A DNA stretch of 64,000 nucleotides from Escherichia coli (GTDB taxonomy: Bacteria; Pseudomonadota; Gammaproteobacteria; Enterobacterales; Enterobacteriaceae): the NCBI RefSeq assembly GCF_965641715.1, contig NZ_OZ282453.1, one strand, 5' to 3'. This document shows, in pieces, positions 23,308 to 59,265 of this stretch. Each line of letters opens with the position of its first letter. Positions within the stretch are counted from its first letter, which is position 1. The notes under the pieces are model-generated. The model searched no databases and was not told the DNA's origin. It was given only the letters and a program-made list of their open reading frames with translations. The translations under genes and the position numbers were made by a program.

Positions 23308-24351
23308 ATGCGCTATCGCATTTTCCTTCTCTTTTTTTTCGCTTTGTTGCCGACGTCTTTGGTGTGGGCGGCACCAGCGCAACGGGCGTTTTCCGACTGG
23401 CAGGTCACCTGTAATAACCAAAACTTCTGCGTGGCGCGTAATACGGGCGATCATAATGGACTGGTGATGACCCTGAGCCGCAGCGCCGGGGCGCATACCG
23501 ATGCCGTTTTACGTATTGAGCGCGGCGGGTTGAAATCGCCGGATGCGTCTGAAGGGGAGATAGCGCCACGGCTGCTGTTAGATGGTGAGCCGTTGGCGTT
23601 AAGTGGTGACAAGTGGCGGATTTCACCATGGTTATTAGTAACCGATGATACGGCAACCATCACCGCGTTTTTGCAGATGATTCAGGAAGGGAAGGCGATC
23701 ACCTTACGCGACGGCAATCAGACCATTTCTCTGAGTGGCTTAAAAGCGGCGTTGTTGTTTATTGATGCTCAGCAAAAGCGCGTTGGCAGTGAAACCGCGT
23801 GGATAAAGAAAGGGGACGAACCGCCGCTCAGCGTACCGCCCGCGCCTGCGCTGAAAGAGGTCGCGGTGGTTAACCCAACGCCGACGCCACTCTCACTCGA
23901 AGAACGCAACGATTTGCTGGATTATGGAAACTGGCGGATGAATGGTCTGCGCTGCTCGCTTGATCCATTGCGTCGTGAGGTGAATGTCACTGCGCTGACT
24001 GATGATAAAGCGCTGATGATGATTAGCTGTGAGGCAGGGGCCTATAACACCATTGATTTGGCATGGATTGTGTCGCGTAAAAAGCCGCTGGCCTCGCGCC
24101 CGGTTCGGTTGCGTTTGCCGTTCAACAACGGTCAGGAGACGAATGAACTGGAACTGATGAACGCAACATTTGATGAGAAATCGCGTGAGCTGGTGACCTT
24201 AGCAAAAGGGCGCGGATTAAGCGATTGTGGCATTCAGGCGCGCTGGCGCTTTGACGGTCAGCGTTTTCGCCTGGTGCGTTACGCCGCAGAACCCACCTGC
24301 GATAACTGGCATGGGCCAGACGCCTGGCCCACGTTGTGGATCACCCGTTAA
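23308..24351 (+). CDS. ypfG: DUF1176-family exported protein YpfG
   Basis: 347 aa with an N-terminal signal peptide. Confidence 0.8.
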   Translation: MRYRIFLLFFFALLPTSLVWAAPAQRAFSDWQVTCNNQNFCVARNTGDHNGLVMTLSRSAGAHTDAVLRIERGGLKSPDASEGEIAPRLLLDGEPLALSGDKWRISPWLLVTDDTATITAFLQMIQEGKAITLRDGNQTISLSGLKAALLFIDAQQKRVGSETAWIKKGDEPPLSVPPAPALKEVAVVNPTPTPLSLEERNDLLDYGNWRMNGLRCSLDPLRREVNVTALTDDKALMMISCEAGAYNTIDLAWIVSRKKPLASRPVRLRLPFNNGQETNELELMNATFDEKSRELVTLAKGRGLSDCGIQARWRFDGQRFRLVRYAAEPTCDNWHGPDAWPTLWITR

Positions 24352-24364
24352 ACAAAATAGCGGG

Positions 24365-24470
24365 ACATGTAGGCCGGATAAGACGCTGTAGGCCGGATAA
24401 GACGCGTCAGCGTCGCATCCGGCAATCAGCATCCGGCAATCAGCGTCCGGCAATCAGCATCTGCCGGTCA
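24365..24470. repeat. REP cluster (BIME-like)
   Basis: Two copies of gtaggccggataagacgc followed by three tandem copies of atccggcaatcagc. Confidence 0.6.
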
Positions 24471-24473
24471 GTA

Positions 24474-26477
24474 TCAGGCACCTTTTACTCCCAGCACCTT
24501 ATGCGCTTTTGCCACAATATTCTCGGCGGTAAAGCCAAAGAACGGGAACAGCTTATCCGCCGGAGCAGATTCCCCGTAACCCGTCATCCCGACAATTGCC
24601 CCTTTCAGACCAACATACTTGTACCAGTAATCGGCAATACCTGCTTCCACCGCCACGCGAGCCGCAACGTTAGAAGGCAACACCGACTCCCGATATTCCT
24701 CATCCTGGGCGTCGAAAATATCGGTCGAGGGCAGGGAAACTACGCGAACATTGCGACCCTCTCCCGCTAATTTCTCTGCCGCTTGCAGGGTGATTTCCAT
24801 CTCTGAACCGGTGGCAATCAGAATAATATCTGGCTTACCGCCGCTGTCTTTCAGCACATAACCGCCACGAGCAATCTCTTTAACCTGATCCGGCGTACGT
24901 TCCACCTGGGCCAGATTCTGCCTGGAGAGAATCAGTGCCGTCGGTCCGTTGTGGCGCTCAACCGCCAGCTTCCAGCCCACCGCCGCTTCCACCTGATCGC
25001 ACGGTCGCCAGGTGCTGAAATTTGGCGTTAAGCGCAGGCTGGCCAGTTGCTCAACAGCCTGGTGCGTCGGACCATCTTCGCCCAGACCAATTGAGTCGTG
25101 GGTATAAACCATAATCTGCCGCGCTTTCATCAGTGCCGCCATCCGCGCGGCGTTACGGGCGTATTCAACAAACATCAGGAACGTTGCGGTATACGGCACA
25201 AAGCCGCCGTGGTGCGCAATGCCATTGGCGATAGCGGTCATGCCAAATTCACGCACCCCGTAGTGAATGTAGTTGCCCGCCGGATCTTCCTTCAGCGAAA
25301 CAGAACCTTTCCAGATGGTCAGGTTGCTGGGAGCCAGATCCGCCGAACCGCCGAGCAGCTCCGGTAGCATCGGCCCGTAAGCGTTAAGCGTATTTTGCGA
25401 AGCCTTACGGGTAGCGATTTTCGCCGGATTCGCCTGCAACTCATTGATATATTTCTGAGTCGTTTTCTCCCAGTCCTTCGGTAAACCACCGCTCATCCGA
25501 CGGGTAAACTCTTCTGCCAGTTGCGGATGAGCCTTTTTATAGGCGGCAAACTTCTCATTCCAGCTCTGCTGCGCTTTTTCGCCTTTTTCGCGGGCATCCC
25601 AGGCGTGATAAATATCTTTAGGGATCTCAAATGGCGGATGGTGCCAGCCCAGTTTTTGCCGTGCCAGCGCCACTTCTTCTTCCCCCAGTGGTGCGCCGTG
25701 CGCCTCTTCCTTACCTGCTTTATTCGGCGAACCAAAGCCAATCACCGTACGGCAGATAATCAGCGACGGCTTATCTTTCACGCTTTGCGCTTCAAGGATC
25801 GCTTCCTTCACCGCCTGCGGATCGTGACCGTCGATTTCATGGATTACATGCCAGTGATAGGCTTCAAAACGTTTTGCCGTATCGTCGGTAAACCAGCCTT
25901 CGGTTTCTCCATCAATCGAAATACCGTTGTGATCGTAAAAACCAATCAGCTTGCCCAGTCCCAGCGTGCCCGCCAGCGAACAGACTTCGTGGGAAATACC
26001 TTCCATCAGGCAGCCGTCGCCCATAAACACATAGGTGAAGTGATCGACAATTTCATGATCCGGCTGGTTAAACTGCGCCGCCAGTGTACGCTCTGCTATC
26101 GCCAGTCCGACGGCGTTCGCCAAACCTTGTCCAAGTGGACCGGTGGTGGTTTCAACACCGGGCGTATAGCCGATTTCCGGGTGGCCAGGGGTTTTCGAAT
26201 GCAACTGACGGAAGTTCTTCAGTTCTTCCAGCGGCAGGTCGTAACCGGTCAGATGTAGCAAACTGTAGAGCAGCATCGACGCGTGACCGTTGGAAAGAAT
26301 AAAGCGGTCGCGATCATACCAGGTTGGGTCGGTAGGGTTATGTTTAAGAAAATCGTTCCACAGCACTTCTGCAATATCAGCCATGCCCATCGGCGCGCCG
26401 GGATGACCAGAATTGGCTTTTTGTACCGCATCCATACTGAGTGCGCGAATCGCATTGGCAAGGTCTTTTCGGGACAT
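24474..26477 (-). CDS. tktB: transketolase 2
   Basis: 667 aa [31 protein letters not shown]... Confidence 0.9.
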
Positions 26478-36613: not shown

Positions 36614-37790
36614 ATTGCAGACCGCGCTCTTTCAGGCGTTCGATACCCTGAATCTGCAACGGGTAAAAACATTTAGCGTTCCACCGGTGACGCTTTGCGG
36701 TCCGGGCTCGGTGAGCAGTTGCGGACAGCAAGCGCAAACGCGTGGGCTGAAACATCTGTTCGTGATGGCAGACAGCTTTTTGCATCAGGCAGGGATGACC
36801 GCCGGGCTGACGCGTAGCCTGACCGTTAAAGGTATCGCCATGACGCTCTGGCCATGTCCGGTGGGCGAACCGTGCATTACCGACGTGTGTGCAGCCGTGG
36901 CGCAGTTGCGTGAGTCAGGCTGTGATGGGGTGATCGCGTTTGGCGGCGGCTCGGTGCTGGATGCGGCGAAAGCCGTGACGTTGCTGGTGACGAACCCGGA
37001 TAGCACGCTGGCAGAGATGTCAGAAACCAGCGTTCTGCAACCGCGCTTGCCGCTGATTGCCATTCCAACTACCGCCGGAACCGGCTCTGAAACCACCAAT
37101 GTAACGGTGATTATCGACGCGGTGAGCGGGCGCAAGCAGGTGTTAGCCCATGCCTCGCTGATGCCGGATGTGGCGATCCTCGACGCCGCATTGACCGAAG
37201 GTGTGCCGTCGCATGTCACGGCGATGACCGGCATTGATGCGTTAACCCATGCCATTGAAGCATACAGCGCCCTGAACGCTACACCGTTTACCGACAGTCT
37301 GGCGATTGGTGCCATTGCGATGATTGGCAAATCGCTGCCGAAAGCGGTGGGCTACGGTCACGACCTTGCCGCGCGCGAGAGCATGTTGCTGGCTTCATGT
37401 ATGGCGGGAATGGCGTTTTCCAGTGCGGGTCTTGGGTTGTGCCACGCGATGGCGCATCAGCCGGGCGCGGCGCTGCATATTCCGCACGGTCTCGCGAACG
37501 CTATGTTGCTGCCAACGGTGATGGAGTTTAACCGGATGGTTTGTCGTGAACGCTTTAGTCAGATTGGTCGGGCACTGCGAACTAAAAAATCCGACGATCG
37601 TGACGCTATTAACGCGGTAAGTGAGCTGATTGCGGAAGTTGGGATTGGTAAACGACTGGGCGATGTTGGCGCGACATCTGCGCATTACGGTGCATGGGCG
37701 CAGGCCGCGCAGGAAGATATTTGTCTGCGCAGCAACCCGCGTACCGCCAGCCTGGAACAGATTGTCGGACTGTACGCAGCGGCGCAATAA
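36603..37790 (+). CDS. eutG: iron-containing alcohol dehydrogenase EutG
   Basis: 395 aa from internal Met MQNELQTALF...; overlaps the eutJ 3' end. Confidence 0.85.
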   Translation: MQNELQTALFQAFDTLNLQRVKTFSVPPVTLCGPGSVSSCGQQAQTRGLKHLFVMADSFLHQAGMTAGLTRSLTVKGIAMTLWPCPVGEPCITDVCAAVAQLRESGCDGVIAFGGGSVLDAAKAVTLLVTNPDSTLAEMSETSVLQPRLPLIAIPTTAGTGSETTNVTVIIDAVSGRKQVLAHASLMPDVAILDAALTEGVPSHVTAMTGIDALTHAIEAYSALNATPFTDSLAIGAIAMIGKSLPKAVGYGHDLAARESMLLASCMAGMAFSSAGLGLCHAMAHQPGAALHIPHGLANAMLLPTVMEFNRMVCRERFSQIGRALRTKKSDDRDAINAVSELIAEVGIGKRLGDVGATSAHYGAWAQAAQEDICLRSNPRTASLEQIVGLYAAAQ

Positions 37791-37791
37791 A

Positions 37792-37873
37792 TGCCGGATG
37801 CGACGCTTGCCGCGTCTTATCCGGCCTACGGGATTGCACATGTAGGGCGGATAAGGCTTCACGCAGCATCCGC
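37792..37873. repeat. REP elements between eutG and eutH
   Basis: gccggatgcgacgcttgccgcgtcttatccggcc and tgtagggcggataaggc palindromic units. Confidence 0.55.
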
Positions 37874-37905
37874 TAATAAATAACAACTAACAGGGAGTAA
37901 AGGCG

Positions 37906-59167: not shown

Positions 59168-59265
59168 TGCCGGATGCGGCGTGAACGCCTTATCCGGCCT
59201 ACAAAACATCGAAAATTCAATATATTGCAGGAGAAAGTAGGCCTGATAAGCGTAGCGCATCAGGC
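59168..59265. repeat. REP elements between yfeZ and yfeY
   Basis: gccggatgcggcgtgaacgccttatccggcc and aggcctgataagcgtagcgcatcaggc palindromic units. Confidence 0.55.

Follow-up and report, generated by a model that had tools for sequence, protein, structure and literature searches.

We wanted to establish what the short repeats between the convergent genes ypfG and tktB of an Escherichia coli genome are, how they came to stand there and what they may do in the mRNA. The stretch of DNA analysed (64,000 nt of contig NZ_OZ282453.1, assembly GCF_965641715.1; hereafter the window) contains both genes, and an earlier note on it had described the cluster as a typical BIME-like arrangement of REP units. 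A REP element at ypfG-tktB is already known, and what is added here is descriptive: the tandem architecture of the half-arms, the polymorphism of the two arrays with its frequencies, an apparent origin by decay of a BIME, and the read-through of the tktB mRNA.

Anatomy of the repeat cluster

The gene names ypfG and tkt/tktB are backed by the RefSeq annotation of matching E. coli records and of K-12, and this annotation agrees with the location between two convergent gene ends given in the earlier note. The flanking genes are 98-99% identical to those of E. coli, the ypfG of the window being 98.5% identical to K-12 ypfG. Between the two stop codons lies a spacer of 122 nt (24352-24473), which reads, in order, ACAAAATAGCGGGACA, two copies of TGTAGGCCGGATAAGACGC, GTCAGCGTC, two copies of GCATCCGGCAATCA, GCGTCCGGCAATCA and GCATCTGCCGGTCAGTA.

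The repeat coordinates (Table 1) are those on which direct reading of the sequence, Tandem Repeats Finder and a second repeat search agreed. Tandem Repeats Finder reported 2.0 exact copies of the 19-mer TGTAGGCCGGATAAGACGC at 24368-24405 (100% match, score 76) and 3.4 copies of the 14-mer GCATCCGGCAATCA at 24415-24461 (93% match, score 87). The full copies of the 14-mer stand at 24415-24428, 24429-24442 and 24443-24456, the third of them (R3) with a single A>G at the third base of the unit, and a 9-nt loop separates the 19-mer pair from the 14-mer triple. The second search returned the same registers and added a fourth, diverged copy of the 14-mer (82% and 64% copies). The repeats were thus found where the earlier note had placed them; the 18-mer and the 14-mer described there correspond to these units, read with a small offset. 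Both motifs are commoner in the window than chance would give. The 18-mer GTAGGCCGGATAAGACGC matched 4 times when up to 3 mismatches were tolerated (0.02 expected), and the 14-mer 6 times when up to 2 were tolerated (1.0 expected), three of the latter matches being contiguous at ypfG-tktB.

Table 1. Features of the ypfG-tktB junction in window coordinates (MFE, minimum free energy)
Feature	Position	Strand	Description	Evidence
ypfG (DUF1176 protein) CDS	23308..24351	+	stop TAA at 24349-24351	ORF list; RefSeq annotation of matching records
GC-rich hairpin in ypfG 3' end	24312..24331	-	TGGGCCAG/CTGGCCCA; Term-seq end just past it	inverted repeat
L1	24368..24386	+	first 19-mer (TGTAGGCCGGATAAGACGC): T + GTAG + REP left arm	sequence; repeat searches; MFE folds
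L2	24387..24405	+	second 19-mer, identical to L1; left arm of the sole complete REP	sequence; repeat searches
Sole complete REP palindrome	24388..24423	+		sequence; inner hairpin of the folds
R1-R3	24415..24456	+	three tandem 14-mers (GCATCCGGCAATCA): REP right arm + 3' flank	sequence; repeat searches
R4'	24457..24473	+	diverged terminal unit GCATCTGCCGGTCAGTA	repeat search; fold; allele comparison
tktB (transketolase 2) CDS	24474..26477	-	stop TGA at 24474-24476	RefSeq annotation; translation

In E. coli, a REP is defined by a 5' GTAG and an imperfect palindrome with a bulge of two mismatched bases (PMC3333891, PMC8266576; papers of Chandler and Ton-Hoang). GTAG was found at 24369-24372 and 24388-24391, and from the latter runs an imperfect, bulged palindrome in the range of 30-40 nt, made in order of GTAG, GCCGGAT, AA, GACGC, GTCA, GCGTC, GC and ATCCGGC. 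This corresponds to a 7-bp stem, a 2x2 mismatch (AA against GC, the bulge), a 5-bp stem and a 4-nt loop. The element is extragenic, lying between the stops of ypfG and tktB, and dispersed, with further REPs at 37.8 kb and 59.2 kb. The identity as a member of the REP family, already proposed in the earlier note, is upheld by the GTAG and the imperfect palindrome with its 2-nt internal mismatch. The 14-mer consists of the right arm of this palindrome followed by AATCA, as the 19-mer consists of T, GTAG and the left arm.

REP179a-c are listed for talA-tktB in K-12 in a table of PMC10100675, while the RefSeq record of K-12 annotates no REP features over about 59 kb. They share with the window element the locus, the flanking genes, the GTAG and the bulged imperfect palindrome. 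The K-12 allele lacks two of the right-arm units and ends in another terminal unit, and is otherwise identical. The feature is very probably, with the origin and the 3'UTR role discussed below included, a local allele of the E. coli REP catalogued as REP179 in K-12, the halves of which have been amplified head-to-tail. The best Rfam match was naRNA4 (REP325-derived, RF02564) with 42.1 bits and E = 8e-6, below the gathering score of 59.5; naRNA4/REP325 is, like the window element, a REP-derived structured RNA but belongs to a different locus. The other Rfam matches, to a plant microRNA family and to archaeal and fungal snoRNA families, were rejected as noise.

Variation in unit number and origin of the tandem units

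To describe the site in the species, 5,426 complete E. coli genomes were used as the population set. The ypfG-tktB site is a double tandem-repeat polymorphism, with one to three left units and two to five right units among the sampled genomes. Allele lengths, taken from sequenced examples, correspond to spacers of 76 nt for 1L+2R, 94/95 nt for 2L+2R (the K-12 allele, 94 nt in K-12 itself), 114 nt for 3L+2R, 109 nt for 2L+3R, 122/123 nt for 2L+4R and 136/137 nt for 2L+5R. The window type, with two left units, three right units and the diverged unit, has a spacer of 122/123 nt, and the same type with one more right unit a spacer of 137 nt.

A tandem of left units was detected in 3,277 of the 5,426 genomes (60%), at essentially one place per genome; the 8 extra places match the eight 3L records. 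Three right units in tandem, at an identity of at least 95%, were present in 189 genomes (3.5%). In 831 genomes (15%) a BoxC motif stands in the place of the REP, and the remaining genomes (about 24%) fit the 1L class, with which an even-step sample of the ranked matches agrees. The window allele itself was matched at 99% or more by a single genome of the 5,426, NZ_OZ197100.1, and its form with one further right unit was found in strain A30. The commonest allele is 2L+2R, which by its fold energy is much more stable than 1L+2R. The numbers of left and right units vary independently and no matching between them was seen, since two left units occur with two to five right units and three left units with two right units.

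The expansions occurred on at least three haplotype or sequence backgrounds. In all this variation the units at the edges keep their variants, the first left unit being TGTAGACC and the last right unit GGCGATCA, and the interior units are identical. Retained edge variants together with identical interior units are the pattern left by slippage or unequal exchange, and the tandem units most likely arose by such slipped-strand mispairing or unequal exchange, in DNA that readily forms hairpins. No microhomology flanks the founding duplication of the 19-mer (A|T at one end, C|G at the other), so that simple slippage accounts for the later changes in copy number better than for the founding event. 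Hairpin-templated (quasipalindrome) switching was also considered for L1 and was rejected, as L1 matches L2 exactly in the same orientation and is not complementary to R2.

Another origin of the half-arm tandems would be enzymatic, with the REP-associated tyrosine transposase TnpA-REP (RAYT) cutting single-stranded DNA at C|T beside the REP and the strands being rejoined, along the lines of the published model for BIME amplification; we regard this as unlikely. TnpA-REP does cleave at C|T on either side (5' or 3') of a REP that bears GTAG, and its strand transfer adds REP units in vitro (PMC3333891, PMC8266576). Moreover, the L1|L2 junction (GACGC|TGTAGG) is a C|T, as are the junctions between right units when read on the bottom strand (ATGC|TGAT). 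However, a C|T junction is expected by chance about 1 time in 16, and in a single-copy allele the two necessary cuts would fall at A|T (ACA|TGTAGG) and at C|G (GACGC|GTCAG). The junction between left units in Escherichia sp. L049 is likewise C|G. On the bottom strand the element is an inverted REP (iREP), which lacks the GTAG needed for binding of the enzyme, and the homogeneity of the interior units is equally compatible with slippage. We therefore retain slipped-strand mispairing or unequal exchange as the preferred origin.

In this behaviour the site resembles the VNTR or minisatellite loci used in MLVA, with which it shares head-to-tail units (14 and 19 nt), recurrent changes in copy number on several haplotypes and retained edge variants. 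Unlike in an ordinary VNTR, the two arrays are complementary halves of one palindrome, and matched copies give a nested hairpin. A literature search by the gene names ypfG and tktB returned no paper describing the locus as a VNTR or a typing marker. A hypervariable site with two linked arrays could serve as a cheap strain marker.

The BoxC or intrastrand-triplex allele was looked at in E. coli 20AR0192 (locus L008, positions 453-554), where it occupies the same site as window 24352-24473. Its motif CCCTCGCCCCTCTGGGGAGAGGGTTAGGGTGAGGGG is identical to K-12 TMECO nos 9, 16, 19 and 22 (PMC4666352), and of the REP only the last right-arm unit is retained. An allele of the BoxC type was also found in Escherichia sp. 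E1V33 (L047).

Relation to BIMEs and the site in related species

The term BIME denotes a REP and an iREP with a linker between them (PMC3333891). Two canonical BIMEs lie in other parts of the window (about 37780-37880 and about 59180-59260, - strand as read). In each, an iREP that ends in CCTAC is joined by a linker, 11 or about 35 nt long, to a REP that starts with GTAG.

At ypfG-tktB, neither CTAC nor an iREP was found in 24352-24473, where all repeats are direct and in one orientation, and the repeat units directly adjoin one another, so that a linker has no place between them. That the cluster is typical of BIMEs, as the earlier note had it, in the sense of complete REPs in alternating orientation separated by linkers, is accordingly quite improbable. 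This reading can call on the presence of REP DNA at convergent gene ends, on the iREP, linker and REP found at the same site in Escherichia L025 and in several Citrobacter, and on the EcoCyc-derived naming, which counts three REP sequences (REP179a-c). Against it, the window units are all co-oriented, the site holds a single full palindrome of which the repeats are the two half-arms, the real BIMEs at about 37.8 kb and 59.2 kb each have two inverted REPs, and the definition in PMC3333891 demands a REP and an iREP. Set against the published definitions, the cluster has the features of a REP, but not the REP and iREP required of a BIME. The likeness to BIMEs lies in being built of REP, in the extragenic position and in a copy number that varies among strains. 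In BIMEs, it is complete REP-iREP pairs, alternating in orientation and with defined linkers, that are amplified, whereas at ypfG-tktB only half-arms are, in one orientation and without linker or iREP.

The cluster is not CRISPR-like either, in line with what had been noted from the sequence: the units follow each other head-to-tail, their start-to-start spacing equals the unit length (14 and 19 nt) and spacers are absent. For annotation, the label to be given is REP element, and not CRISPR array, end of a mobile element, terminator or canonical BIME. As a local allele of REP179 with amplified half-arms, the element can be placed next to what its relatives carry at the same junction.

For this, a degenerate pattern of the YpfG C-terminus was used with one genome per species, which gave 51 loci (L018-L068); 45 of these allowed the end of tktB to be located. 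No spacer exists in 29 of the 45 Enterobacteriaceae loci, where the two genes overlap, by either 4 or 11 nt. In separate lineages the genes are set apart by 14-189 nt; these spacers contain a REP or BIME in Escherichia, several Citrobacter and one Enterobacter, and in others BoxC-like motifs or terminator-like hairpins (Leclercia, Phytobacter). In Citrobacter youngae, near-duplicates of the former overlap border the BIME on both sides, ATCACNCGTTAA next to ypfG and ATCAGGCGTTAAG next to tktB. The C-terminus of TktB reads ...KVL-GVKGA* in Escherichia (window 24474-24500, - strand) and ...KVLNA/NG* in the genera with overlapping genes. Small repeats (REP, BIME, BoxC) have thus repeatedly colonised a convergent junction that is overlapping in most relatives, and the last codons of TktB were rewritten.

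An earlier state may be seen in Escherichia sp. L025, a more distant species of the genus (about 89% identical), which has a canonical BIME at the site, made of an iREP, a 16-nt linker and a REP. The right arm of this REP, ATCAGGC, contains the stop codon of tktB. When the E. coli 1L allele was aligned with L025, a gap of 39 nt spanned the iREP and most of the linker, and E. coli had 28 extra nt of right-arm units. The tktB end of E. coli keeps ATCAGGC with the stop codon as a remnant of a REP right arm, and a 42-nt query of three right units aligns across the tktB end in genomes of the K-12 type with 36 of 38 bases matching.

Given the true two-REP BIME of L025 at the site, the E. coli element appears to be a BIME in a decayed state, probably descended from one of the kind that L025 and Citrobacter still carry. 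A REP or BIME would first have been inserted between ypfG and tktB, the inverted REP partner would then have been lost in the E. coli lineage, and the half-arms would have been duplicated, after which the arrays would have expanded and contracted. As to the second step, a shared edge of 5 nt and the BIMEs of Citrobacter suggest that the iREP may have been lost in E. coli, and not gained in L025. Escherichia sp. MOD1-EC7003 (L049, a closer species, about 94%) already has two diverged left units; the 2L state would seem to predate E. coli, and the 1L alleles would be contractions. The species may together offer a natural series of BIME decay and expansion of hairpin half-arms.

In L049, the stop codon of tktB was lost (GCC TGA > GCC GGA) and the gene ends two residues later, at a TGA in the next repeat unit. 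Its TktB ends in ...GAGC, and the stop now lies within a right unit.

Folding, transcription and possible function

The spacer is predicted to fold stably on either strand, with an MFE of -60.6 kcal/mol (z = -6.5) on the + strand and of -58.9 kcal/mol (z = -4.7) on the - strand. Since the left and right units are complementary, the predicted structure is a nested two-tier hairpin, in which L2 pairs with R1 in the inner tier and L1 with R2 in the outer tier; in the latter, GCCGGAT of L1 (24373-24379) is able to pair with ATCCGGC of R2. Model alleles gave -33 kcal/mol for 1L1R, -51 kcal/mol for 2L2R and -70 kcal/mol for 3L3R, so that each matched pair of left and right units adds about -18 kcal/mol. 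An unmatched unit in these models adds only about -2 kcal/mol.

A scan for intrinsic terminators on either strand found no hairpin followed by a U-tract at the site, and a promoter scan found no pattern there. Among the curated 3' ends of K-12 determined by Term-seq in a study of three growth conditions (Adams et al. 2021, supplementary file 1), none falls inside the REP, and the only nearby one is the tktB-sense end 2581778 (+), which corresponds to window 24307 (-). This end lies 139 nt past the tktB stop, 45 nt antisense into ypfG and about 60 nt beyond the REP. The talA-tktB transcript therefore reads through the REP. The GC-rich hairpin that directly precedes the Term-seq end (Table 1) has 7-8 bp and no U-tract and is smaller than the REP. 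The REP is accordingly a structure of the talA-tktB 3'UTR, and it is neither a terminator nor the steady-state end of the transcript in K-12 under the three conditions.

REPs in general act as barriers to 3' exonucleases and are associated with Rho-dependent 3' ends (PMC6061677). By analogy, the REP at this site may slow the 3'->5' exonucleolytic decay of the talA-tktB mRNA as a structural element. A study in which transcripts containing REPs were stabilised under ATP depletion names talA-tktB in its table of NaF-responsive pathway genes, which has entries for REPs as well (PMC10100675).

One could go further and see in the tandem amplification of half-arms a distinct, adaptive mode of REP evolution, in which the number of matched pairs tunes tktB. 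The ancestral right arm ATCAGGC, holding the tktB stop, would have been frozen by coding constraint, and duplication of the arms would have freed the REP-proximal copies to co-evolve with the left arm, by GCCTGAT>GCCGGAT together with ATCAGGC>ATCCGGC. The matched arm pairs would then set the strength of the nested 3'UTR hairpin and, with it, the expression of tktB. We find little likelihood in this scenario.

Still less probable, to the point of being very hard to credit, is that the site is a selected device in which unit number tunes the expression of tktB or ypfG, possibly as a bidirectional terminator, by stalling of ribosomes near the tktB stop or through repeated single-stranded GGA-containing motifs of the 3'UTR. 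In its favour, the structure begins a few nt from the tktB stop and the balanced 2L+2R allele is both the commonest and far more stable than 1L+2R. Liang, Rudd and Deutscher (2015) reportedly found that REPs located at most 15 nt from a stop codon reduce translation. The listing of talA-tktB among NaF-responsive genes with REPs (PMC10100675) fits as well. Against it stand the lack of a terminator signature and the read-through seen by Term-seq. Furthermore, the independent numbers of left and right units, the replacement of the REP by an unrelated BoxC in 15% of the genomes and the absence of a spacer in most genera all argue against an essential role. A 3'UTR structure that probably slows decay is the reading we keep, with the extra unmatched units as presumably near-neutral by-products.

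In the window allele, the fold contains an additional 6-bp hairpin between R3 (CCGGCA, 24447-24452) and the diverged fourth unit (TGCCGG, 24462-24467), which directly adjoins the tktB stop codon. This terminal unit, GCATCTGCCGGTCAGTA, differs from the common terminal unit GCATCCGGCGATCACCA at 5 of 17 positions, and its central heptamer resembles a local inversion (CCGGCAx > xTGCCGG), from which the new small hairpin with R3 results. It was otherwise found only in NZ_OZ197100.1 and in strain A30 (CP028745).
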